From a plasmid, in the sequence record NZ_CP064762.1: a stretch of 13,939 nucleotides of DNA, one strand, 5' to 3'. The notes beneath the pieces are model-generated. The model searched no databases and was not told where the DNA came from. It was given only the letters and a program-made list of their open reading frames with translations. Positions 1,842-13,883 of the stretch are shown here, one piece after another. A program made the position numbers and the translations under genes. The number at the start of each line of letters is the position of its first letter. Within the stretch, counting starts at the first letter, position 1.

Positions 1842-4800
1842 ATGCAAAGTAATTTTGAGTTTTTGAAAACTAATCCATTGACTGCTGATTATTTTCCTTC
1901 AGCAACACAAGCTGAAAAATCGTATGCTCTTGGTTTATATTCTGGTGAAGAAACAAGCATTCGTGTCGTGGCTGAGAACATTGCACGCGATATTGCAGAT
2001 CAACAGTTCTTGAATGTTACTAATACTGATACTTTTAATGATGTTCTGCGAGTACTTAAATATGACACTAATATTGATCATGACACGTTGGAGTTATTTT
2101 ATGATCTTAAGCAAAGTGGTAATCAAGCAGCACACCAACTAGCAGTTATGACGGTTTCAAAAACCGACCAAGAGACGGGATTACGTGATTTAAAACGACT
2201 ATACAAATTGTTATTTTGGTTTGTGAACACATTTTATGATCAAACCATTTCTGAAAACGATTTTCATGAACCACAAAGAGAAGATTACATCTACACTGCT
2301 ACAATAACTCCTTCTGCCGCTGAGCGAAACTTAATCTACATTCAGAGTGCTAAAACAGAAAATGGACATTTTATTGATTACATCGGTAGTGAAAAGATAG
2401 GAAAGGCTTCTGTTACTGATCTTGAAGCTGACATGAGTGAAAATAGCGATTATTTGCGTCAAACTGCTCAGAAACGTATCAATCAGTACATGGAGACCGC
2501 AGGTGTGCCTTCTAAATTAGAGTGGGCTGAACTAGCTTACCGCAAGAATGGTGAGCCACATTGGTTTACAGATAAGGATGTTCATAAGGTCCTGGAACGG
2601 TCAAAAGTGCAACACAGTCCCAGTCTTGCGGGTCAGGAATGGTTCAAAACTGATTTGACAACTGCTAAAAAAGCAATCAAAGCTGTTAAGAACAATCAGT
2701 CAGTTATTGATGTTAATGGTAACAAGAATCAGAAACCTAAGATTGTATTGCGTCCAGAACAGCTTGCTGCTGTTAAAAAGACTGAGAAAGCTTTCAAGAA
2801 CAATAAATACACGAACATGCTTTGGAACGCCAAAATGCGGTTCGGAAAGACATTGTCTGCTTTACAGTTAATTAAAGATGAAGGATACAAGCATGTCTTA
2901 ATTATGACGCACAGACCGGCCGTTGATGAGAGCTGGTTCGATGACTTCGTAAAAATAGGAATGCCAGAAGCCGGTTATTTGTATGGCTCAAAGAACCAAG
3001 GTGCAACATTTAAATCACTTCAAGATGGATCGAAGCCGTTTGTTTACTTTGCCAGTTTACAAGACCTGTCAGGTTCAAAGCTAGTCGGTGGTAAGGTTAA
3101 AGATAAGAATCAAGAACTATTTTCTGAAGATTGGGACTTAGTCATTATTGATGAAGCTCACGAAGGTACTCAAACAGAACTAGCCCAACAAGTGTTAAAT
3201 CAAGTCCAGGGTCCTAAAACTAAGTTTCTTGAATTATCTGGTACACCATTCAACATTCTAGATCAATATGAGGACGATCAAGTATATACATGGGATTACA
3301 CAATGGAACAGCGTGCTAAACAACAATGGGAAATTGACCACCCACATGAACCAAATCCATACGCTGGATTACCACGTGTTAACATGTTCACTTTCAGCAT
3401 GAGCGACAAGTTTAAAAATCCTAAATTTAGTCAGGTGGGTGACAAGTCGTTTAACTTTAAGGAGTTTTTCAGAGTTAATGAGCAAGGCAACTTTGTTTAC
3501 GAAAGCTACATTAAGCAGTTTCTGAGAAACATTACAACACCAAGTAAACATACCAGTTATCCATTTTCTACTAACCCATTTCGTGATCAATTACGTCATA
3601 CACTTTGGCTAATGCCAGGTGTTAAAGAAGCCGGAGCAATGGAACGTTTGCTAAAACAGGACCCTGTTCTTGGTGAAATTAGTGGTTATAAGATTATTAA
3701 TGTTGTTAAAGATGTTAGGGGAGAAGATAAAGGTATCACGGATCAGACTGATGTTGATCGTGTTAAATCAGCAATTGGTGATGATCCAGCATCAACTAAG
3801 ACAATAACGCTAACGGTTCGTAAACTTACAACAGGAGTTACTATTAAGCCATGGACAGGTGTTATCTTTTTATCCAACACTAATTCGGCTATGCAATATC
3901 TTCAAGCAGCATTCAGGGCGCAGACACCTTATTCTGACCCCCATTTTGGTACCAAGACTGATTGCTTTATTTTTGATTTTGCACCAGATCGAGCATTAAC
4001 GATTATGGCGGAGTCAGCGCAAATGAACAGCGGTGTGGGTAAACGGACAACAAGTGTTCAGAAACAGCGTATGGCTGATTTGTTAAACTTTCTACCTATC
4101 ATTGGAGAACAGGGTAACCAAATGAGGCCATTTCATGTGGACTCAATGCTTAAACAAATTAAAAAGATATATGCTGAAAAAGCTGTTAAATCAGGCTTTG
4201 AAGATGATTCACTTTATTCAGACGAATTGTTGATGATTAAGGAAGCCGACCTTGAAGACTTTAAGGATTTGAAGGTAATGGTTGGTAAAACCAAACGTGA
4301 AAACACCAAAGTTAAGGTTAATATCAATAATCAAGGACTAACGGACGAGCAGTATGATAAAGCGGTGAGTGGTCAGAAAAAGCCTAAGAAGGAACGTTCA
4401 CCTGAGGAACAAGCTGCTATTGACCAGATGAATGCCATGAAGAAACAGCGTAAAACGCTGATTTCAATTTTGCGTTCAATTTCGATCAGGATTCCATTGA
4501 TGATCTATGGTATGGACGTTGATTTAGCAAAAGATATTAGCATCAACACTTTCGTCGATAAGGTTGATGAGCAATCTTGGAAGGAATTCATGCCTAAGAA
4601 GGTTGATAAGGCACTGTTCCGCAAGTTTATCAAATACTATGACCCACAAGTATTCTTGGAAGCTGGTCAAATTATTCGGCAAAAAGTAAAAGAGCTTGAC
4701 AATGCTGACCCAATTGAACGGATTGGTAAATTAACAGACATTCTAGGCACGTTCCATAATCCTGATAAAGAAACAGTATTGACCCCTTGGCGAGTAGTTA

Positions 4801-6287
4801 ACATGCACCTTGGTAAAACTGTTGGTGGACTATCGTTCTTTGACAAGGATTATAAGTACAATACAGAAAACGGTGAAAGTGCCAATCATTGGATTAGCAC
4901 TGAGTATACTGGCCAAGTATTTAAACCTGATACACATATTCTCGAAATTAACAGTAAAACTGGAACTTATCCTTTATACATGGCAGCATCTTTATACTGG
5001 AAGGGGTTTCAGAAGCTGAATGAACAAACGGCCGGGAAGTTTACTTTAGAAAATGAACTGTTCATTTGGCAAAAGGTCCTTCGTGAGAATATCTTTATGA
5101 TTGCCAAGACGCCAATGGCCAAATCTATTGCCATTCGTACCTTATGTGGCTTCCAGAAATTCAATACTAATATTGAGTACATTGACGGTATTGTTGGGGA
5201 TATTAAAGAAAATATTGGAGTAGAGACTAAAAAGATAAAGGAACGGTTTGGAATGATGAAGTTTGATGTAGTAATCGGGAATCCGCCATATCAACAAGAA
5301 GCAAATGGTGCATCTACTCGTGATGAACCTATTTACCATAATTTTATGGATTTGTCTTATAAACTAGCTCCGTTGGTAACTTTGATCACGCCTGGTAGAT
5401 TCTTGTTTAATGCAGGGCAGACCCCTAAAAAGTGGAATGAGAAAATGCTTAAGAATGATCATTTAAAGGTGGTTATGTATCAGCAAGATAGTAGTAAGAT
5501 CTTCCCAAGGACAGATATTAAGGGGGGAATAGCTATAACCTTGATGGATGCACACAAAAAAATTGGTCCAATTGGAACCTTTACAATTTTTAATCAGCTA
5601 AATTCTATAGTTAAGAAGGTCAACACAAGCAACAGTCTTAGTAAAATTATTTCTTCTCAAGGATTATATAGGTTCAGTGATCTTGCCTTGACATCACATC
5701 CAGAAATATTAGAGAAAACAGGAAAAGGAACTAAAAATAAGATTACATCCAAGGTCTTTGGAACGTTAAGTTCTATTTTTACGTCTAATCCAATTGGAGA
5801 TAATAACATTAAAATGTTGGGACTGGTTGATGGAAAAAGACAATATAGATATATAAAAAGAGACTATATTGAAGAAAATTCATATATTAATAGTTATAAA
5901 GTGTTTATACCTGAATCTAATGGTTCCGGTGCTATTGGCGAAGTGCTGAGCACACCGCTCGTTGGAGCTCCGCTCGTTGGAGCTCCGCTCGTTGGAGCCA
6001 CTGACACCTTTTTGAACATTGGTCCATTTAATAATAAGGATGAGGCAAATAACTTACTTAAATATGTGAAAAGTAAATTCGCAAGAACAATGTTAGGTGT
6101 GAAAAAGATTACGCAACATAATCCTAGTTCAACTTGGACAATGGTTCCACTTCAAGACTTTACTTCTAATTCGGATATTGATTGGTCTCGGCCAATTTCT
6201 GAAATTGATCAGCAACTTTATACTAAGTACAATCTCTCGCAAGATGAAATTGACTTCATTGAAACGAGAGTACAGGCAATGGATTGA
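1842..6287 (+). CDS. Single-polypeptide Type ISP-like restriction-modification enzyme (HEPN/DUF4145-like N-terminus + Mrr-like motif + SF2 DEAH ATPase + gamma-class N6-adenine methyltransferase + TRD)
   Basis: 1481-aa ORF with AGGAG 7 nt upstream.
- Residues ~88-99 carry LKQSGNQAAHQ, a DUF4145/HEPN-type (R/K)xxGNxxAH motif.
- Residues ~148-171 carry DYIYTA...NLIYIQSAK, which resembles the Mrr-family catalytic strand (IYIQxK).
- The ATPase motifs are Walker A MRFGKTLSAL (~333-340), DEAH VIIDEAHEG (~434-442), motif III LSGTP (~465-469) and an Arg-containing motif VI-like QAAFRAQ (~688-694).
- The MTase motifs are X TVLTPWRVVNMHL (~978-990), I ILEINSKTGTYPL (~1033-1045, TaqI-like single Gly), II NIEYIDGI (~1110-1117) and IV FDVVIGNPPY (~1141-1150).
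- About 330 aa follow motif IV, which is consistent with a TRD. Confidence 0.8.
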   Translation: MQSNFEFLKTNPLTADYFPSATQAEKSYALGLYSGEETSIRVVAENIARDIADQQFLNVTNTDTFNDVLRVLKYDTNIDHDTLELFYDLKQSGNQAAHQLAVMTVSKTDQETGLRDLKRLYKLLFWFVNTFYDQTISENDFHEPQREDYIYTATITPSAAERNLIYIQSAKTENGHFIDYIGSEKIGKASVTDLEADMSENSDYLRQTAQKRINQYMETAGVPSKLEWAELAYRKNGEPHWFTDKDVHKVLERSKVQHSPSLAGQEWFKTDLTTAKKAIKAVKNNQSVIDVNGNKNQKPKIVLRPEQLAAVKKTEKAFKNNKYTNMLWNAKMRFGKTLSALQLIKDEGYKHVLIMTHRPAVDESWFDDFVKIGMPEAGYLYGSKNQGATFKSLQDGSKPFVYFASLQDLSGSKLVGGKVKDKNQELFSEDWDLVIIDEAHEGTQTELAQQVLNQVQGPKTKFLELSGTPFNILDQYEDDQVYTWDYTMEQRAKQQWEIDHPHEPNPYAGLPRVNMFTFSMSDKFKNPKFSQVGDKSFNFKEFFRVNEQGNFVYESYIKQFLRNITTPSKHTSYPFSTNPFRDQLRHTLWLMPGVKEAGAMERLLKQDPVLGEISGYKIINVVKDVRGEDKGITDQTDVDRVKSAIGDDPASTKTITLTVRKLTTGVTIKPWTGVIFLSNTNSAMQYLQAAFRAQTPYSDPHFGTKTDCFIFDFAPDRALTIMAESAQMNSGVGKRTTSVQKQRMADLLNFLPIIGEQGNQMRPFHVDSMLKQIKKIYAEKAVKSGFEDDSLYSDELLMIKEADLEDFKDLKVMVGKTKRENTKVKVNINNQGLTDEQYDKAVSGQKKPKKERSPEEQAAIDQMNAMKKQRKTLISILRSISIRIPLMIYGMDVDLAKDISINTFVDKVDEQSWKEFMPKKVDKALFRKFIKYYDPQVFLEAGQIIRQKVKELDNADPIERIGKLTDILGTFHNPDKETVLTPWRVVNMHLGKTVGGLSFFDKDYKYNTENGESANHWISTEYTGQVFKPDTHILEINSKTGTYPLYMAASLYWKGFQKLNEQTAGKFTLENELFIWQKVLRENIFMIAKTPMAKSIAIRTLCGFQKFNTNIEYIDGIVGDIKENIGVETKKIKERFGMMKFDVVIGNPPYQQEANGASTRDEPIYHNFMDLSYKLAPLVTLITPGRFLFNAGQTPKKWNEKMLKNDHLKVVMYQQDSSKIFPRTDIKGGIAITLMDAHKKIGPIGTFTIFNQLNSIVKKVNTSNSLSKIISSQGLYRFSDLALTSHPEILEKTGKGTKNKITSKVFGTLSSIFTSNPIGDNNIKMLGLVDGKRQYRYIKRDYIEENSYINSYKVFIPESNGSGAIGEVLSTPLVGAPLVGAPLVGATDTFLNIGPFNNKDEANNLLKYVKSKFARTMLGVKKITQHNPSSTWTMVPLQDFTSNSDIDWSRPISEIDQQLYTKYNLSQDEIDFIETRVQAMD
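5955..5999 (+). repeat. Perfect 15-bp tandem repeat x3 (ccgctcgttggagcN) encoding PLVGA-PLVGA-PLVGA inside the putative TRD
   Basis: Three contiguous head-to-tail copies are visible directly. Only the last base differs (t/t/c). The repeat is in frame and GC-rich relative to its surroundings. Confidence 0.95.
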
Positions 6288-6997: not shown

Positions 6998-7017
6998 AAT
7001 TGTGAGGTGATTGTATA

Positions 7018-7146
7018 TTGGAAGATGATAGTTATTCAATTTTAAATCAAAGAGCTATTATAGATTTACTTATACAAGGAGACATAATCCCCTATATGAC
7101 TGGATCTGAAATTCAAGATATAGGAATGAAATTTAAATTTTTTTGA
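7018..7146 (+). CDS. Short ORF (42 aa, TTG start; LEDDSYSILNQRAIIDLLIQGDIIPYMTGSEIQDIGMKFKFF), possibly the 5' remnant of a third gene of the RM operon cut by a repeat element
   Basis: GAGGTGA (7004-7010) sits 7 nt before TTG 7018. The ORF ends exactly where the ~70-bp repeated terminator element begins (~7150-7170). No homology was recognised. Confidence 0.2.
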   Translation: MEDDSYSILNQRAIIDLLIQGDIIPYMTGSEIQDIGMKFKFF

Positions 7147-7198
7147 TTCAGTATTTAGGGTCTATAATTACCAAATAACCCCTCGAAAACGTTGTTAA

Positions 7199-7239
7199 AA
7201 TAGCCCCCAATATCTATAATATAGATATTGGGGGCTATT
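7199..7239. terminator. Bidirectional rho-independent terminator (perfect 15-bp stem cccccaatatctata/tatagatattggggg flanked by A- and T-runs) between convergent operons
   Basis: aatagcccccaatatctata-at-atagatattgggggctatt is followed by ttttaatttattttttt and preceded by gttaaaa. It lies between the + operon ending at 6997 and the - operon ending at 7276. Confidence 0.7.
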
Positions 7240-7275
7240 TTAATTTATTTTTTTATAAGTGCCCCTAAACTATAG

Positions 7276-7578
7276 CTATTGATTCAAGATTTCATGGGAG
7301 CCAGTTGCAACCAATAACAAAATCAATTCATCATGATCTAGCTGATAAATAACAATCCAGTTGTCATAATTTTTACCATAGTTTCCATATCTGGCAGGGT
7401 GAAATTCACGATAGCCACGCCAATTTCCTTTTAATGCATGATCTTTAATCTGTTTCAAAACAAGTACATCTTGTTCAACAATTGCTTCTAAACAAGGCTT
7501 CAAGACAGTTATTGGGAAATGTTTTTTGACTAGTTTTTTTAATTCACGTTCAAAAGATTTGGTCTGTTTAATTTGCAT
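7276..7578 (-). CDS. yafQ: Type II toxin, YafQ/RelE-family mRNA interferase
   Basis: 100-aa protein with the C-terminal signature ...WRGYREFH...NWIVIYQLDHDELILLLVATGSHEIL. It overlaps the upstream antitoxin gene by 11 nt. Confidence 0.8.
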   Translation of the reverse strand: MQIKQTKSFERELKKLVKKHFPITVLKPCLEAIVEQDVLVLKQIKDHALKGNWRGYREFHPARYGNYGKNYDNWIVIYQLDHDELILLLVATGSHEILNQ

Positions 7579-7846
7579 CTAACTTATCGATCCAATCTTC
7601 AAAGTCAGTCAATGAACCAATGTTTTTGACCTGCCCTGTTTCTGCTTCTTTTTTAGCGGCTAAGGCTTCCGGAGAATCTAAAAAGCTGACTAATCGAACT
7701 TCATTATTGGCCGCTTTAACTAACGATAAGCGTATATACTCAGAAACGGTTAGCCCTTGTTTTGCTAGATTAGCTTTAGCCCGTTCACTAATGTCAGGTG
7801 TTACACGAGTTGAAATTGTCTTGTTTTTAATAATAGTATTACTCAT
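7568..7846 (-). CDS. dinJ: Type II antitoxin, DinJ/RelB-like ribbon-helix-helix
   Basis: 92-aa protein with an N-terminal RHH-like region (TISTRVTPDISERAKANLAKQGLTVSEYIRLSL). It lies upstream of and overlaps the YafQ-like toxin. A GGGGG RBS sits 10 nt before the ATG. Confidence 0.75.
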   Translation of the reverse strand: MSNTIIKNKTISTRVTPDISERAKANLAKQGLTVSEYIRLSLVKAANNEVRLVSFLDSPEALAAKKEAETGQVKNIGSLTDFEDWIDKLDAN

Positions 7847-7879
7847 TCTAATCCGCCCCCTTTCAGTTTACCATCGTAC

Positions 7880-7915
7880 TACATTATAATATTCGATTTT
7901 TAGGTTTTCTGCAAC
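7880..7915 (-). promoter_or_regulatory. Putative sigma70-type promoter of the dinJ-yafQ operon (minus strand: TTGCAG-17-TATTAT/TATAAT)
   Basis: Read on the minus strand the sequence is ttgcagaaaacctaaaaatcgaatattataat, about 30 nt upstream of the antitoxin RBS. Confidence 0.4.
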
Positions 7916-7949
7916 TAAATTAATTTTAAAGTAAAGGAACTAACAGCTT

Positions 7950-8060
7950 ATGCAACAAGTTGTCTTACCCATCAAAGATTCAAATGTTCTCAAGGAGGTT
8001 CAAGATACGTTACTCAATAACTTTAGAAGCTGTTTAGTATCTTTGATTTTGACCAAATAA
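7950..8060 (+). pseudogene. Truncated duplicate of the 5' end of the tyrosine-recombinase gene (first ~26 codons nearly identical to 11673-11750, then frameshifted to a stop)
   Basis: 7950-8027 is atgcaacaagttgtcttacccatcaaagattcaaatgttctcaaggaggttcaagatacgttactcaataacttt. It matches 11673-11750 with only a few substitutions, and the similarity stops at ~8028. Confidence 0.75.
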
Positions 8061-8094
8061 TTTGATAACTACTGTCAAAAAAGTTGGTGATCAT

Positions 8095-8211
8095 ATGCAA
8101 CATTTTAGTCATCATTACCAAAGCGATATTTCTCGGCAACAATTCGATTTGATCCGCCAGGATCTGGAAGCTTCAAGGTCCCCAATTCCCCCCTCACTCA
8201 AAAAGGAGTGA
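8095..8211 (+). pseudogene. N-terminal fragment of a DDE transposase (DUF4096-like motif, MQHFSHHYQSDISRQQFDLIRQDLE...), truncated
   Basis: The 38-codon ORF begins with a sequence resembling the 'LTDEQWELIEPLL' N-termini of IS5/IS1182-type transposases. There is no downstream continuation. Confidence 0.3.
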
Positions 8212-8306
8212 GCGAAGCCCACGCTCACATTTAACTGCGCCTCCCGTTGGTCGTTGCTAAAATCAAGCCCATGGTTAGGAAACTTCGGTCACACCCTCAG
8301 GCAGAA

Positions 8307-8528
8307 TTAAATAGCGTTAATAGCTGATCTGGCCCTTTGAAGTTGTTTGAATTCTTTGGACGTTACTTCAGTACCGTCTTCTAGCTCAACTGATTTAGCG
8401 CCTTTAACCCAATTCCGAATTGAATCGGCTGAAGGACCGTATTCCTTGGATAATTCATCGGATCGTCGTCCCGCTTTAACCATCTCCACAATGGACTTTT
8501 TTAAGTCCTCTTCATAACGTGTAACCAT
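8307..8528 (-). pseudogene. IS3-family transposase OrfA (HTH, PF01527-like), 3'-truncated
   Basis: MVTRYEEDLKKSIVEMVKAGRRSDELSKEYGPSADSIRNWVKG...SKEFKQLQ fits the IS3/IS911 OrfA HTH plus the start of a leucine zipper. It is truncated after ~70 aa and has no orfB. An AGGAGCA RBS lies within the adjacent 62-bp IS-end element. Confidence 0.7.
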
Positions 8529-8537
8529 AAATAAAAA

Positions 8538-8599
8538 TGCTCCTATGATGATATTTTACCAAACTAGCAAAACTAGTCCGGAATCTCATCATAAGAGCA
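8538..8599 (-). mobile_element. 62-bp IS-end-like element (copy A). It begins TG..., ends ...CA, carries internal 15-bp palindromic arms, and is contiguous with the IS3-like orfA fragment
   Basis: tgctcctatgatgatattttaccaaactagcaaaactagtccggaatctcatcataagagca. It is 57/62 identical to the reverse complement of 10402-10463. Confidence 0.5.
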
Positions 8600-8653
8600 T
8601 GTATACTTGTGTATAGTAAGTTTGTTGAACTGCAACAAATACAGGAGGAACAA

Positions 8654-9706
8654 ATGTTTTTAGCAATTAGAGAGATTAAAAAAGAAAAACTACGGTACGG
8701 CTTGATTCTAACAGTCGTCGTCTTAATCAGTTATTTGATTTTCATTTTAAGTGCCCTGGCGCTCGGGCTGGCAACAGCTAACACCGCTGCGGTGGACAGC
8801 TGGCAGTCTAAGTCCTTTGTAATGACCAAAGACGCTAATGGCAATGCCGGACAGTCATTACTGACAACGAAACAGGTGGATCAGTTAAGCGACGACAAAA
8901 CCGCAACACTTGGCATTACACCAGTTAATATGAAAATTGGCGGAAAACGTGAATCCGCACAATTCGTTGGGATGAATAACGACGAGTACATCGCTAAAAA
9001 CCTACAATTAACCAAGGGGCACTTGCCAAAGGCAGCTAACGAAGTCGTCCTCGCTGACTCAGTTGATAAGGATATTTACGGTATGGGGGATAAAATTTCG
9101 ATTGGGTTATCTGATACGAAATATAAAATCGTGGGTTATGCGAAAAATGCCACGTATAACACCGCACCTGTTATTTATGGCGCGTTAGCGCAATGGCGTG
9201 TCATTAAGGGCGTGTCAGATCAATTCCAAGGTAGCGTAGTTACTTCAAAAACGTCACAATCGGTCGATGATAAAGCATTAAAGACTTATTCATACCAAGC
9301 CTTTATCAATAAATTGCCAGGTTATACACCGCAAAAAGCGACGTTTGGTCTCATGATTGGCTTCCTGATTGTCATTTCATTGATTGTGATTACCATCTTC
9401 CTCTACATTCTAACGGTTCAAAAATTGCCTAACTTGGCAGTTTTGCGTGCACAAGGCATTCCAAATCGTTTCTTGGCCCAAAATACGTTATTTGAGACGT
9501 TCTTTATTATGGCAACTGGTATCGTCGTTGGTGCTGTACTATCGGCATTAACTGAATTTGGGATTCCAGATAGCGTACCAATGGCATTTGATTGGGGATT
9601 GATGGGACTCATTGCGGCCGGATTGATGGTAACCGGGTTACTGGGTGCAATCATTCCGATTCGTGTGATTAGTAAGATTGATCCGGTATCAGTAATTGGA
9701 GGTTAA
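8654..9706 (+). CDS. ABC transporter permease, FtsX/MacB-like (N-terminal TM, large extracytoplasmic domain, three C-terminal TM helices)
   Basis: AGGAGG (8643-8648) precedes ATG 8654. The ORF-track start at 8609 is probably too far upstream. Hydrophobic segments occur at ~15-40 and in the last ~130 aa. The next gene is translationally coupled. Confidence 0.85.
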   Translation: MFLAIREIKKEKLRYGLILTVVVLISYLIFILSALALGLATANTAAVDSWQSKSFVMTKDANGNAGQSLLTTKQVDQLSDDKTATLGITPVNMKIGGKRESAQFVGMNNDEYIAKNLQLTKGHLPKAANEVVLADSVDKDIYGMGDKISIGLSDTKYKIVGYAKNATYNTAPVIYGALAQWRVIKGVSDQFQGSVVTSKTSQSVDDKALKTYSYQAFINKLPGYTPQKATFGLMIGFLIVISLIVITIFLYILTVQKLPNLAVLRAQGIPNRFLAQNTLFETFFIMATGIVVGAVLSALTEFGIPDSVPMAFDWGLMGLIAAGLMVTGLLGAIIPIRVISKIDPVSVIGG

Positions 9707-9710
9707 AAAG

Positions 9711-10391
9711 ATGCGTGAAGAAAAACTAGCCCTTGAACACGTGACGAAACAATTTGGTCAGAAAACCAATTTAGTTACGGCACTAGAAGACGTCAGTTTA
9801 GCGTTTAAAGCTGGTGAGGTGTCGCTTATCATTGGTCCTTCAGGATCTGGTAAAAGTACCTTGCTAACCATTTTAGGCGGGTTACAGACACCAACAGACG
9901 GCTCAGTTCGTTTGAATGGTCACGACATCAGTGATTTGAGTACCAAAGAAGCCGAAAAAACACGACTTGAACAAATCGGTTTCGTCTTACAGGCGTACAA
10001 TCTCGTGCCATATTTAACCGTAGCAGACCAATTCAAACTTGTTGACCAGGTGAAGCCTAACAATAACCTCAGTCAAGATGGATTTGACAAAATTATTGAA
10101 ACGCTAGGCATTCAAAAATTATTAAACAAATACCCTGGCGAATTGTCTGGCGGTCAACAACAGCGCGTTGCAATTGCCCGTGCGTTGTATACAGACCCGG
10201 CGATCATCCTAGCCGATGAACCTACGGCAGCATTAGATACGGCACGTGTCAAAGAAGTTGGCCAACTTTTTGCTAATATTGCGCATGACGAGGAAAAAGC
10301 AGTCGTCATCGTCACGCACGATGATCGTCTGCGAGAGTTTTCTGATAATGTCTACAAAATTGTCGACGGAAAACTATCTAATACGGACTGA
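9711..10391 (+). CDS. ABC transporter ATP-binding protein
   Basis: The motifs present are Walker A GPSGSGKST, Q-loop, ABC signature LSGGQQQRVAIARAL, Walker B IILADEPTAALD and H-loop VTHD. GGAGG at 9698-9702 precedes ATG 9711. Confidence 0.9.
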   Translation: MREEKLALEHVTKQFGQKTNLVTALEDVSLAFKAGEVSLIIGPSGSGKSTLLTILGGLQTPTDGSVRLNGHDISDLSTKEAEKTRLEQIGFVLQAYNLVPYLTVADQFKLVDQVKPNNNLSQDGFDKIIETLGIQKLLNKYPGELSGGQQQRVAIARALYTDPAIILADEPTAALDTARVKEVGQLFANIAHDEEKAVVIVTHDDRLREFSDNVYKIVDGKLSNTD

Positions 10392-10401
10392 TTAACACAC
10401 T

Positions 10402-10463
10402 TGCTCTTATGCTGATATTCCGGACTAGTTTTTCTCGTTTGGTAAAATATCATCATAAGAGCA
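10402..10463 (+). mobile_element. 62-bp IS-end-like element (copy B), inverted relative to copy A and not followed by a transposase gene (solo end)
   Basis: tgctcttatgctgatattccggactagtttttctcgtttggtaaaatatcatcataagagca. Together with copy A it brackets the two ABC genes as an inverted pair. Confidence 0.5.
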
Positions 10464-10559
10464 ATAGATTATTTAGTTATGTTTTTGTCGAGCTTGCATT
10501 TTTGCTAGTCCGCTTGTAGCAAGGGTTTCAGCCCAATATAATAACTAAAATTTATAAGG

Positions 10560-10742
10560 TTACTTTTCAAATGTGTTGATTATCCATTGCAGAGAAAAGA
10601 ACACAATAAAAATGATAAGAATAGGAAGCAGTCTAGCCAGCCAAATATTGATGTTTGGATATTGTGACAGAGTATGATAGAGCCATTGGGCAATTATAAA
10701 AGCGCCCAATCCGCTGACGATTTATTTGATGTTTTTATACAT
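10560..10742 (-). pseudogene. Small two-TM hydrophobic protein gene (~60 aa) with its own promoter and GGAGA RBS, interrupted by an in-frame TAA at codon 7
   Basis: The minus strand reads ttggagaaataacATG TAT AAA AAC ATC AAA TAA ATC GTC AGC GGA TTG GGC... and translates to MYKNIK*IVSGLGAFIIAQWLYHTLSQYPNINIWLARLLPILIIFIVFFSLQWIINTFEK. An upstream TTGTTT-17-TATATT promoter is present. An alternative TTG start at 10709 would give 49 aa. Confidence 0.35.
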
Positions 10743-10800
10743 GTTATTTCTCCAATATATTCATACTAATATAGTACCTATAATACCATTAAACAAAAAA

Positions 10801-10842
10801 ACAGCCCCTATTATCTATCCACTAGATAACGGGGGCTGTTTT
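10801..10842. terminator. Hairpin terminator (acagcccctattatctat...atagataacgggggctgt) flanked by A7 and T4
   Basis: Imperfect inverted repeat with an 8-bp GC-rich stem base. aaaaaaa lies upstream and tttt downstream. Confidence 0.55.
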
Positions 10843-10891
10843 ATAGGGGCGATTAAAAAAGGCACAAATAACCCCTCAAAAACGTTTTTAA

Positions 10892-10932
10892 AATAACCCC
10901 CAATATCTATAATGTAGATATTGGGGGTTATT
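10892..10932. terminator. Bidirectional terminator, second copy of the ~70-bp repeated hairpin element (cccccaatatcta / tagatattggggg)
   Basis: aataacccccaatatctataatgtagatattgggggttatt is followed by tgtttttata. It sits 3' of the minus-strand relE-like gene that ends at 10961. Confidence 0.7.
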
Positions 10933-10960
10933 TGTTTTTATATGGTATAAATGACTTCTC

Positions 10961-11317
10961 TTATTCGTCATTTTTTCGATACCTTTTGGAACGATTTTGA
11001 CCAGGAAATAAACGATCATGCGATCCGACTCGAATGCCAATTAAGACTAGTTCATCTTTATCAATCGTATAAACCACCAGGACATCGTTAGTTTCGCTTG
11101 GTGTTTTGTTTTTCGGGGTATCTCGTAAGTGAAATTCATTATAACCGCTCATTCGCCGATTAAGCTCATGATCTTCAAATTCTGGTGGTAATTGTTGTTG
11201 CTCAAGCAACAGGTCAATGGCTGCTCGAACTTCATCAATAATAGATTTGTCTAAACTGGCTAACCGTTTTAGATCAGCATTAAAGGTTGCACGTGGTTTA
11301 AATCTTAGTTTTTTCAT
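10961..11317 (-). CDS. Type II toxin, RelE/ParE/YafQ-superfamily
   Basis: 118-aa protein with C-terminal ...GYNEFHLRD...DVLVVYTIDKDELVLIGIRVGSHDRLF. Its ATG overlaps the antitoxin stop in a TAATG arrangement. Confidence 0.75.
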   Translation of the reverse strand: MKKLRFKPRATFNADLKRLASLDKSIIDEVRAAIDLLLEQQQLPPEFEDHELNRRMSGYNEFHLRDTPKNKTPSETNDVLVVYTIDKDELVLIGIRVGSHDRLFPGQNRSKRYRKNDE

Positions 11318-11641: not shown

Positions 11642-11672
11642 TAAAAATCAATTTTTTTAAGGAGCTAAAACT

Positions 11673-12260
11673 ATGCAACAAGTTGTCTTACCCATCAAAG
11701 ATTCAAACGTTCTTAAAGAGGTTCAAGATACGTTACTCAATAACTTTAAAGCTGGCCGACGTAACTATACAGTTTTTCAAGTTGGCAAAGCGACGCTACT
11801 GCGAGTGAGTGATGTCATGCGCTTAAAACAGACCGATATTTTTAATCCGGACGGTTCTATTAAACAAAATGCGTTCATTCACGACCGAAAAACGGGTAAG
11901 CCTAATACCTTGTACCTTAAACCAGTTCAAACAGAGCTCTTATTGTACCGTCAATGGCTACTTGATCATAGACTGGATTCTGAATGGCTCTTTCCTTCCA
12001 TTCAACACCCAGAACGCCATATCACGGAAAAACAGTTCTACAAAATTATGAGTAAGGTTGGCGATCTGTTAGGAATTAATTATCTAGGGACCCATACGAT
12101 GCGCAAAACCGGGGCTTATCGCGTTTACACGCAATCAAATTATAATATTGGCTTAGTCATGAATTTGCTAAATCATTCCAGTGAAGCGATGACTTTAGCT
12201 TATTTAGGCTTAGACCAGGCTAGTACTGAAACGATGCTGGATCAAATTGATTTTGGTTAG
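11673..12260 (+). CDS. Small tyrosine site-specific recombinase / integrase (phage-integrase family, 195 aa)
   Basis: The C-terminal catalytic region reads LGTHTMRKTGAYRVY and an upstream Arg lies in ...RVSDVMRLKQTD, consistent with the R..H-x-x-R...Y arrangement of tyrosine recombinases. AAGGAG lies 8 nt upstream of the ATG. Confidence 0.8.
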   Translation: MQQVVLPIKDSNVLKEVQDTLLNNFKAGRRNYTVFQVGKATLLRVSDVMRLKQTDIFNPDGSIKQNAFIHDRKTGKPNTLYLKPVQTELLLYRQWLLDHRLDSEWLFPSIQHPERHITEKQFYKIMSKVGDLLGINYLGTHTMRKTGAYRVYTQSNYNIGLVMNLLNHSSEAMTLAYLGLDQASTETMLDQIDFG

Positions 12261-13369: not shown

Positions 13370-13665
13370 CTGTCAATGGTAGCGGACGAGCGTAGCGTGG
13401 GAGCATAAGGAATTGACAGCTCTAAACCAGTCTTAACACTGAAATGGCGAAAGCCAAAGTTTCTATAAAACTTTGCTTTCCTGCCTAACGGCGAGTGAAA
13501 AAGCGGTCAAGCTGGTTCAGCTTGGACGGGGTACGGGGCGTCAGCGCCCGAATTAATGTGGCTTGCCACACCTTTTAGGCAACGAACAGAGTGAGGCGCA
13601 AGGAGCATAGCGACTGGAGTTTAATGTGAGCCGGTTTTTGGCTCACTCCTTTGTATTTTTTGTTT
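13370..13665. other. GC-rich multi-hairpin element: ssoA-like single-strand origin remnant or structured ncRNA
   Basis: Local GC is well above the plasmid background.
- A long hairpin gctgtcaat...attgacagc (13370-13420) carries cgTAGCGTgggagc in its loop, resembling the CS-6 TAGCGT/A loop of ssoA elements.
- A GNRA-looped stem tggcGAAAgcca lies at ~13446-13457.
- Further stems include caaagtt...aactttg, caagctg-gtt-cagcttg and gggcg-tcag-cgccc.
- A terminal stem gagcc-ggttttt-ggctc is followed by a T-rich tail (13628-13660). Confidence 0.35.
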
Positions 13666-13690: not shown

Positions 13691-13734
13691 CCTCTTTTAT
13701 ACCTCTTTTATAAACCTCTTTTAAACCTCTTTTA
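13691..13734 (+). repeat. Four ~11-bp direct repeats (cctctttta) of the origin region
   Basis: cctctttta occurs at 13691, 13702, 13715 and 13726. This is typical of the DnaA/AT-rich side of Rep_3 iteron origins. Confidence 0.7.
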
Positions 13735-13772
13735 GACCCCTATTGAGGCTTACTCTCCCAAGGCTTATAGAA

Positions 13773-13873
13773 GTTTATCAACGAGGTTTTGTCTGTTTAT
13801 CAACGAGGTTTTGTCTGTTTATCAAGTAGGTTTTGTCTGTTTATCAAGTAGGTTTTGTCTGTTTATCAAGTAG
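13773..13873 (+). repeat. Origin iterons: 4.5 contiguous 22-bp direct repeats (gtttatcaaSKAGGttttgtct)
   Basis: The repeats lie at 13773-13794, 13795-13816, 13817-13838 and 13839-13860, with a half-repeat at 13861-13873. Copies 1-2 read ...caacgagg... and copies 3-4 read ...caagtagg.... Confidence 0.9.
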
Positions 13874-13883
13874 AAATATAAAG

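Follow-up and report, generated by a model that had tools for sequence, protein, structure and literature searches.

Composite transposons carry their cargo between copies of one insertion sequence (IS), and ISApl1-mcr-1 provides an example with inverted IS copies and decay products, in which loss or truncation of one IS copy, or of both, has left the cargo immobilised on plasmids (PMC5821093). Here, a plasmid-derived stretch of 13,939 nucleotides (nt) from sequence record NZ_CP064762.1 (the whole stretch is called the window below) was analysed around positions 8538–10463, where two inverted copies of a 62-nt sequence (the 62-mers, copies A and B) enclose a two-gene ATP-binding cassette (ABC) operon resembling hrtB and hrtA. 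We consider it probable that this 1926-bp unit is a decayed, IS-bounded, composite-transposon-like hrtBA module derived from an IS3-family element, and that the paired arms within each 62-mer act as an RNA hairpin occluding the Shine-Dalgarno (SD) sequence of the transposase gene orfA. IS-X is used as a working name for the element that has the 62-mer as its left end. The structure is real but ordinary, being a known kind of decayed IS-bounded cargo module on the promiscuous plasmids of Lactobacillaceae.

Several described systems are relevant to this locus. IS10 and IS50 are protected against external transcription by fold-back of the message; only transcripts starting outside the element contain both arms. 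An SD-sequestering stem-loop has been described in the leader of IS200 (PMC4513863), and the 5′ untranslated region of ISPpu9 sequesters the SD as well (PMC8450116). Junction promoters have been established for the circles of IS3-family elements (PMC3219604, PMC3299598). IS1163 and IS1520, two IS3-family elements of Lactobacillaceae, resemble IS-X most directly, and a literature search on IS1163 returned nothing on its ends. As for the cargo, hrtRBA of Lactococcus is a heme-detoxifying ABC exporter system.

The 62-mers and their parental element

When 8520–8620 (plus strand) was aligned with the reverse complement of 10380–10480, copies A and B matched at 57 of 62 positions, leaving five mismatches. 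A repeat search ranked 8538–8602 and 10399–10463 (65 nt, 91% complementary) as the longest inverted repeat of the window, the runner-up measuring 46 nt. Each copy has TG at its start and CA at its end. The parts of the two copies, and what is left of the IS behind copy A, are as follows.

8538–8599, minus strand: copy A, nt 1–62 of the IS left end (IS nt n = window 8600 − n)
8585–8599, minus strand: tip, or outer arm, of copy A, from the sequence
8588–8593, minus strand: TATGAT of copy A (IS nt 7–12), putative −10 half of a circle-junction promoter, from the motif
8577–8582, minus strand: TCCGGA of copy A, core of the inverted repeat, from the sequence
8553–8561, minus strand: extended −10-like motif TGGTAAAAT of copy A (IS nt 39–47)
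8538–8552, minus strand: inner arm of copy A, containing the SD AGGAG (CTCCT on the plus strand at 8540–8544)
8317–8537, minus strand: remnant of the IS body, a 9-nt spacer and a truncated orfA (open reading frame 8307–8528, HTH_Tnp_1)
10402–10463, plus strand: copy B, a solo IS left end (IS nt n = window 10401 + n), with outer arm 10402–10416 and inner arm 10449–10463

The arms of copy A, TGCTCCTATGATGAT (8538–8552) and CTCATCATAAGAGCA (8585–8599), form 13 Watson-Crick pairs of 15, or 14 when G·T is included, and 14 of the 15 positions are paired in copy B. The 62-mers fold with z-scores of −6.4 to −8.7, a stability that none of 200 shuffled sequences equalled, while an Rfam scan of 7000–11200 placed no family over them. 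The first-pass annotation, made from the letters alone, had already described the inverted identity, the TG...CA ends and the 15-bp arms of these repeats, and the alignment bears it out, except that the second arm it quoted ('atcatcat...') is exact for copy B alone. Nor is the 32-nt core fully asymmetric, as had been stated, since a second, imperfect hairpin, CCGGACUAG...CUAGUUUGG, lies within it.

The same annotation took the 62-mers for IS left ends, copy A being continuous with an IS3-like orfA and supplying its ribosome-binding site and copy B being a solo end. That reading is correct, because the 62-mer together with the start of orfA heads full IS-X copies elsewhere. In a pattern scan of one genome per species, the combination occurred at ~35 sites with unrelated flanks in Weissella fermenti BK2, and was found again in W. 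cibaria, Periweissella and metagenomes. Copy A runs directly into an orfA of the HTH_Tnp_1 type, with the SD lying inside the copy, and no transposase sequence stands behind copy B. The 62-mers are clearly the first 62 nt of an IS3-family element, that is, its terminal inverted repeat and 5′ leader down to the SD.

IS-X is 1476 bp long, with TGCTCTTATGATGAGATTCCGGAC as its left inverted repeat (IRL) and ...GTCCGGAGTCTTGACATCAGAGCC as its right inverted repeat (IRR). These repeats span ~30 bp around a common TCCGGAC core, and the comparison of the IRL (TGCTCTTATGATGAGATTCCGGACTAG) with the reverse complement of the IRR (GGCTCTGATGTCAAGACTCCGGACC; in Periweissella, TGCTCTGATG...) fits the imperfect repeats of ~20–40 bp, with 5′-TG and CA-3′, that are typical of the IS3 family. 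OrfA matches PF01527 (HTH_Tnp_1), and the OrfB clusters carry PF00665 and PF13276 under the source name 'IS3 family transposase'. A 3-bp target duplication surrounds 14 of the 23 full copies in W. fermenti, so that the ends, the arrangement of orfA (helix-turn-helix, HTH) and orfB (rve) and the duplications all place IS-X in the IS3 family. NCBI annotation holds no specific name for it, the generic 'IS3 family transposase' label standing alone. No full IS-X was found among the plasmids of PLSDB, where only its first 197 bp occur, within the module; the element is native to Weissella and Periweissella. The W. fermenti BK2 contigs (L008–L084) hold their ~35 copies of the 1476-bp IS in one genome with the 3-bp duplications mostly intact, which indicates a recent IS expansion in that strain.

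Comparison with IS1163 and IS1520 shows much in common, including the tip TGCTCYTAT, the architecture of orfA followed by orfB, a TTGACA hexamer 8 nt from the right tip and a tip complementary to the SD region. The OrfB of IS-X is ~50% identical to that of IS1520. IS-X differs in the core of its inverted repeats (TCCGGAC vs TTTGGTACAT), in its length of 1476 bp and in its long 3′ non-coding tail.

The left-hand IS

The IS to which copy A belongs survives complete in a Paucilactobacillus plasmid (L001, 4051–5222), where it measures 1172 bp, from TGCTCTTATGATG... to ...TTGACATAGGAGCA. Past ~nt 150–200 this element is literally IS1163 (98–100% identity), whereas IS-X is the source of the 62-mer and of orfA codons 1–26. 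The IS-X-type part is 95% identical to the W. fermenti element, and the whole OrfA of the module's IS is 74% identical to that of IS-X. Both in L001 and in the window (8317–8599), the IS-X left end and the HTH-coding start of orfA are fused to IS1163 inside the conserved patch IRNWVK, so that ~8451–8537 of the window's remnant is of the IS-X type and 8317–8450 of the IS1163 type. The chimeric IS beside the cargo is probably immobile, because its two ends belong to different elements.

In the window, the chimera is moreover cut at 8317–8333, at a CCCTTT microhomology, by unrelated sequence.

8026–8316, unstranded: unrelated IS debris truncating the left IS, also present in plasmids without the module

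Positions 8069–8199 of this debris are the 5′ end of a transposase gene (N-terminus MQHFSHHYQSDISRQQFDLIRQDLEA...), assigned to the IS5 family by reading of the translation, and are missing from the L. pentosus and L. plantarum versions of the region, which align at 95% coverage in two pieces. Recombination within an IS1163 shared with F. rossiae-type plasmids was considered as the source of the truncated IS and ruled out; those plasmids diverge at CCCTTT and have no IS1163 there. A 35-nt inverted repeat (80%), at 8202–8236 and 13618–13652, surrounds a GC-rich terminator-like hairpin, GTGAGCG...CGCTCAC, with one copy within the IS debris and the other close to the putative replication origin.

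The cargo operon

Between the 62-mers lie the following features.

8600–8653, plus strand: native leader of the ABC operon; homology to the IS-free contig L087 begins at 8600
8654–9706, plus strand: hrtB-like, FtsX-type ABC permease, 350 amino acids
9711–10391, plus strand: hrtA-like ABC ATPase of the MacB/LolD/DevA type, 226 amino acids

The permease aligns through residues 1–349, at full length, to the HrtB chain PDB 7W78_B (E=2.4e-30). Pfam assigns FtsX to the permease and ABC_tran to the ATPase, and homologues of the former are named by their sources as putative hemin transport permease HrtB. Much like HrtBA of Corynebacterium diphtheriae (7W78), then, the cargo joins an FtsX permease homologous to HrtB to an adjoining MacB/LolD-type ATPase, in the order B then A. 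It differs in being plasmid-borne and in lacking a TetR/HrtR or HssRS regulator nearby; no regulator gene, heme-responsive or other, was found between or beside the 62-mers, whereas the chromosomal relatives have a TetR-type gene downstream. The cargo can thus be described as a regulator-less hrtB/hrtA-like ABC exporter, putatively heme-efflux-like.

Its closest relative outside the module is a metagenomic contig, L087, at 94% protein and 84% DNA identity. Apart from this one contig, the cargo is at most 57% identical at the protein level to any homologue, all of these next relatives being chromosomal. L087 is free of the repeats, the chromosomal relatives are distant, and no donor genome for the cargo was identified. 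The first 25 nt of the leader, TGTATACTTGTGTATAGTAAGTTTG, are 100% conserved and are presumed, because of that conservation, to hold a promoter or operator. Candidate hrtBA promoters were weak, with poor −35 hexamers upstream of TATACT and TATAGT, and a consensus scan found none on the plus strand.

The cargo had been described as visibly GC-richer than its surroundings, and its composition agrees. The ABC coding sequences have 43.0% GC, against 36.1% for the window outside 8026–10463, and 1738-bp windows of the remainder average 36.3% (standard deviation 1.7) with a maximum of 39.8%. GC at third codon positions is likewise higher, at 0.43 and 0.39 in the two ABC genes and 0.22–0.33 in most others.

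Possible capture between two left ends

The first-pass annotation also proposed that flanking IS copies had captured the operon from a different host. We infer a composite-transposon history along the following lines. Two IS copies would once have stood inverted, with their left ends inward, on either side of a regulator-less hrtB-hrtA-like operon, making a composite-transposon-like unit. The left copy would later have recombined with IS1163 and, in the window, been truncated, while the right copy would have collapsed to a 62-bp scar. What is seen today is two left ends in inverted orientation, one on a truncated hybrid IS and the other a 62-bp remnant.

Support for such a history comes from L087, which has no 62-mer and whose homology to the window starts exactly at 8600, the base after the tip of copy A. 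This is the signature of an IS-mediated junction on the 5′ side of the operon. The parental IS, with its Weissella and Periweissella hosts and its absence in full from PLSDB, also agrees with an origin elsewhere. Several observations weigh on the other side. The cargo's right boundary is beyond the reach of the L087 comparison, and the attempt to place it there failed; homology stops at 10183, inside hrtA, beyond which L087 reads into a different ATPase and must therefore be either a chimera or a recombinant. Target duplications are missing both around the unit as a whole and around each 62-mer, and all ~35 occurrences of the 1926-bp unit share one insertion context. The absence of 3-bp duplications extends from the IS of copy A (in L001) and copy B to all solo ends, which leaves a simple insertion model unsupported. 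Composite transposition is accordingly not demonstrated, because the unit was never met in a second insertion context. A unit-wide duplication and differing sites are what mark a composite transposon, and here there is no matching 3-bp flank and the flanks are identical in the ~35 occurrences. The module is also set apart from described composite transposons by having one IS reduced to exactly its 62-nt left end, predicted to form a hairpin, and the other turned into a chimera whose two ends and DNA-binding domain no longer match. Capture of the cargo from another host is plausible but unproven.

It might instead be argued that the two ends go back to separate IS insertions with no connection to each other, or are scars left by rearrangement at a recombination hot spot of the plasmid, and that their bracketing of the operon is incidental. 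The region is indeed a mosaic of duplicated toxin-antitoxin-integrase modules, IS5 debris, a hybrid IS and microhomology junctions. Copies A and B cannot be recent copies of one IS, because 5 of 62 positions differ, and the unit has no duplication around it. Moreover, a Periweissella locus shows the same geometry, a full IS and a solo end, around unrelated genes; for the same reason, such two-left-end loci were ruled out as an ancestral hrtBA context. We nevertheless regard coincidence as unlikely. Both ends and the cargo travel together at 99.8–100% identity through ~20 species, a lineage only 97% identical (L016, described below) already shows a 62-mer at the corresponding edge of the cargo, the IS tip marks the exact point at which homology to the IS-free relative begins, and a parental IS foreign to the hosts' plasmids fits co-import of the IS and its cargo.

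Distribution and the inverted isomer

Positions 8000–10700 of the window are 100% identical to a 13.8-kb plasmid of Companilactobacillus futsaii. More widely, the 1926-bp unit was found at 99.8–100% identity in 15 plasmids and ~20 species, its hosts belonging to Levilactobacillus, Companilactobacillus, Lactiplantibacillus, Secundilactobacillus, Lacticaseibacillus, Paucilactobacillus and Latilactobacillus, many of them from pickled vegetables. Without exception, orfA adjoins copy A, and beyond copy B comes one constant right flank that is itself only found with the module.

10464–10864, plus strand: right flank co-travelling with the module, constant in its occurrences

From these constant flanks it follows that the unit has spread within a larger segment and not via transposition of its own. 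Under the proposed history, it would now move passively in a larger plasmid segment among Lactobacillaceae of fermented vegetables. Within the flank, 10469–10530 is similar to what precedes a gene for a small tyrosine recombinase on a plasmid of Lactococcus piscium.

One variant deserves separate mention. A 573-bp contig in an Amycolatopsis minnesotensis assembly (L016, NZ_BAAANN010000152.1) is 97% identical to the module over the shared 538 bp, and joins the cargo-side flank of copy A to the outer flank of copy B through a single 62-mer. L016 carries the inverted isomer of the hrtBA segment, its junction being what one would expect if the cargo had inverted by way of the repeats, and the 62-bp inverted repeats can still recombine and flip the cargo. 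L016 is probably contamination, because it is lactobacillus plasmid DNA in an Amycolatopsis assembly.

For plasmid annotation, this history would explain the presence of a near-identical module in ~20 Lactobacillaceae species from pickled or fermented vegetables: a Weissella-type IS would have brought in an orphan hrtBA-like exporter, which IS decay then left fixed in place. As a marker of recent plasmid exchange in fermented-vegetable foods, the module is useful.

Solo left ends and the hairpin foot

Copy B is one of a class. Ten independent solo left ends were collected, none of them with a target duplication, and 8 of the 10 break off at the hairpin's 3′ foot or no more than 4 nt beyond it. 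The terminal sequence CATAAGAGCA is common to copy B and L107, an unrelated solo from a metagenome, and its A six bases from the 3′ end is that of the true right end (IRR) of the IS and not that of intact inner arms. Intact IS-X copies read CATAGGAG(C/T)A at the inner arm, and the right tip of IS-X reads CATCAGAGC(A/C). In the same way, all three solos of a related Leuconostoc-type element end in GCA, matching that element's right tip TTAGGAGCA, where its intact copies have GCT in 8 of 8 cases. The inner arm and the right tip amount to direct repeats of 7–10 nt, which suggests that the IS body was lost either by recombination between them or by the transposase acting at the inner arm as if it were an end. 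Two solos keep 3–4 extra T residues and do not fit either route simply. Solo right ends exist as well, plasmids of Liquorilactobacillus hordei and L. nagelii (H179 and H180) having just the final 107 bp of IS-X (96% identity).

The recurrence of this breakpoint raises the question of whether the 62-mer is itself a miniature non-autonomous element, comparable to a miniature inverted-repeat transposable element (MITE), with the inner arm as its pseudo right end, and 8538–10463 a cargo unit mobilised in trans by the IS transposase. Each 62-mer does run from TG to CA with 15-nt terminal inverted repeats, at least eight independent solos end at the 3′ end of the inner arm or within 4 nt of it, and a perfect ...GGAGCA closes the Leuconostoc-type solos but not the intact copies. 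However, terminal inverted repeats are only one mark of a MITE; no solo shows a clear 3-bp target duplication, and solos number 0–2 per genome, W. fermenti having none beside its ~35 full IS copies. The inner arm would be a pseudo-end without a correctly placed binding site, because the TCCGGA core lies 39 nt from the inner tip compared with 17 nt from the true tip. Since the 1926-bp unit always has identical flanks and copy A is contiguous with a transposase gene, we hold this explanation to be quite improbable and retain decay of full-length IS copies as the origin of the solos.

A probable hairpin between the IS tip and the orfA SD

Within the 62-mer, the IS tip (nt 1–15, with CTCCT) is complementary to the stretch ending in the orfA SD (nt 48–62, with AGGAG). 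Equivalent pairings were found in IS1163 (TGCTCCTATC / GATAGGAGCA) and in the 1218-bp Leuconostoc element (TGCTCCTATAC / GTATAGGAGC), the latter type having a 3-bp duplication in 1 of 2 copies. The design recurs in elements of L. pseudomesenteroides, L. hilgardii/L. mesenteroides and L. backii, and in IS1520 with a bulge. It had been supposed that subterminal palindromes are unusual inside an IS3-type end; on the contrary, complementarity of tip and SD is conserved and covarying in relatives of the IS1163, IS1520-like, Leuconostoc, L. hilgardii and L. backii types.

Covariation was assessed in 19 sequences from at least seven lineages, with inner arms anchored on the SD motif. Both sides of the helix change, pair 10 being AU, GC or CG and pair 11 CG or AU. 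The covariation score was 0.198, as against 0.129±0.012 in shuffles (0 of 500 reached it) and at most 0.132 in slid registers. In the transposase sense, cells that depart from Watson-Crick pairing are G·U in 20 cases and A·C in 6. The sense RNA also folds better than the antisense (−32 vs −21.7 kcal/mol for copy A, −29.3 vs −17.8 for IS-X), an advantage of 6–11.5 kcal/mol. Finally, where the two tips of an element differ, sequence comparison shows the inner arm to track the IRL tip and not the IRR tip in all three lineages with a known IRR. An SD-sequestering leader is marked by a conserved, covarying helix between an upstream segment and the SD, and the tip/SD helix is of this kind. Thus the arms most likely form an SD-occluding RNA hairpin in read-through transcripts.

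Folding predictions bear on when the SD would be hidden. A read-through RNA of 131 nt is predicted to bury it in the 15-bp stem (−39 kcal/mol), and RNAs starting at ~nt 19 or ~nt 54 are predicted to leave it free. The first kind of start would be provided by the circle junction, where a −35-like hexamer 8 nt from the right tip, the 3-bp spacer and a further 6 nt place a −10 hexamer at a distance of 17 bp (8+3+6). The hexamers are TTGACA in IS-X and IS1163 and TTGACT in the Leuconostoc type, with TATGAT, TATACT or TATCCT as −10, and the geometry is kept in all three. The second kind may be provided by the extended −10-like TGGTAAAAT at nt 39–47, which has equivalents in IS1163 and the Leuconostoc type. 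From motif and fold together we infer the following function and promoter usage. A transcript entering from outside the IS would carry both arms, fold and hide the SD of orfA; transcripts from the circle-junction promoter would start downstream of the 5′ arm and stay translatable, as would those from the weak internal TGGTAAAAT promoter. Much like the leaders of IS10/IS50, IS200 (PMC4513863) and ISPpu9 (PMC8450116), IS-X is thus predicted to limit translation by pairing an upstream segment with the transposase SD. It differs in using the very end of the inverted repeat as 5′ arm, a stretch that also carries the putative −10 half of the junction promoter.

Some caution is warranted by a number of points that tell against the hairpin. 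The inner arms in the covariation alignment are SD-anchored and many of its rows stem from close relatives, which makes the shuffle statistic overstate their independence. The promoter consensus scan flags only a hybrid promoter between flank and IRL, the start sites being predicted from motifs. Constraints of another kind may act both on the SD and on the IS tip, whose nt 7–12 double as the −10 box, and the function of the hairpin rests on sequence and folding only.

That the arms work at the level of DNA, as a cruciform or a second transposase-binding or cleavage site, or else on the plus strand as a 3′ stabiliser or terminator of hrtBA (copy B) and an upstream insulator (copy A), finds some encouragement in the likeness of the inner arm to the right-end tip CATAGGAGCA, in the recurrent breakpoint and in the position of copy B 10 nt past the hrtA stop codon with a fold of −26.5 kcal/mol in the hrtBA sense, but is very hard to credit, given that no T-run follows copy B and a terminator scan leaves it unflagged, and that an RNA hairpin in the IS sense is favoured over a second transposase site by the covariation, the G·U bias, the sense-strand stability and an inner arm that follows the left tip.

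A more far-reaching version of the RNA hairpin can be entertained tentatively, though we would not expect it to hold in full. Because the 5′ arm is the IS tip carrying the −10 half, the same outer 10–15 nt of the left end would serve in three roles, as cleavage substrate, junction −10 and anti-SD; orfA would be translated only from junction or internal transcripts, and whole IS copies would repeatedly collapse into scars of 62–75 bp at the foot of the hairpin, used as a pseudo right end.

For IS biology, the covariation evidence suggests that a Gram-positive clade of the IS3 family protects orfA translation by a tip/SD hairpin, and this comparative evidence is modestly new. The same can be said of identifying a Weissella-type parent for the IS, of its chimera with IS1163, of the inverted isomer and of the hairpin-foot breakpoint, which is also reproducible. 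Neither the history of the module nor the hairpin alters current concepts.

The plasmid backbone around the module

A direct repeat of ~70 bp (90% identical) occurs at 7172–7248 and 10865–10941, and also at 10798–10842, with perfect palindromes of 19–24 bp, AAATAGCCCCCAATATCTATA/TATAGATATTGGGGGCTATTT. These repeats look like bidirectional terminators 3′ of toxin-antitoxin pairs. Matches to Rfam at 7183–7259 and 10876–10944 were sub-threshold microRNA models on the palindromic terminators and were dismissed as spurious. Backbone modules are shuffled at the repeat, which marks a recombination boundary, because 7172–7990 directly follows 10933 in other plasmids.

The first 77 bp of a small tyrosine-recombinase ('site-specific integrase') gene are duplicated at 7949–8025 and 11672–11748 (96% identity). 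The former is a stump, cut off by the IS debris, and each copy adjoins a different toxin-antitoxin pair, YafQ/RelB in one case and a YafQ/Phd-type pair in the other.

Near the end of the window, 13751–13882 holds five tandem 22-bp repeats, GTTTATCAACGAGGTTTTGTCT, preceded at 13691–13738 by repeats of 11–13 bp, CCTCTTTTA; together these are probably the replication-origin iterons of the plasmid. Finally, three tandem 15-bp units, CCGCTCGTTGGAGCT, lie at 5955–5999, inside a large restriction-modification gene of the Eco57I type (1842–6287).

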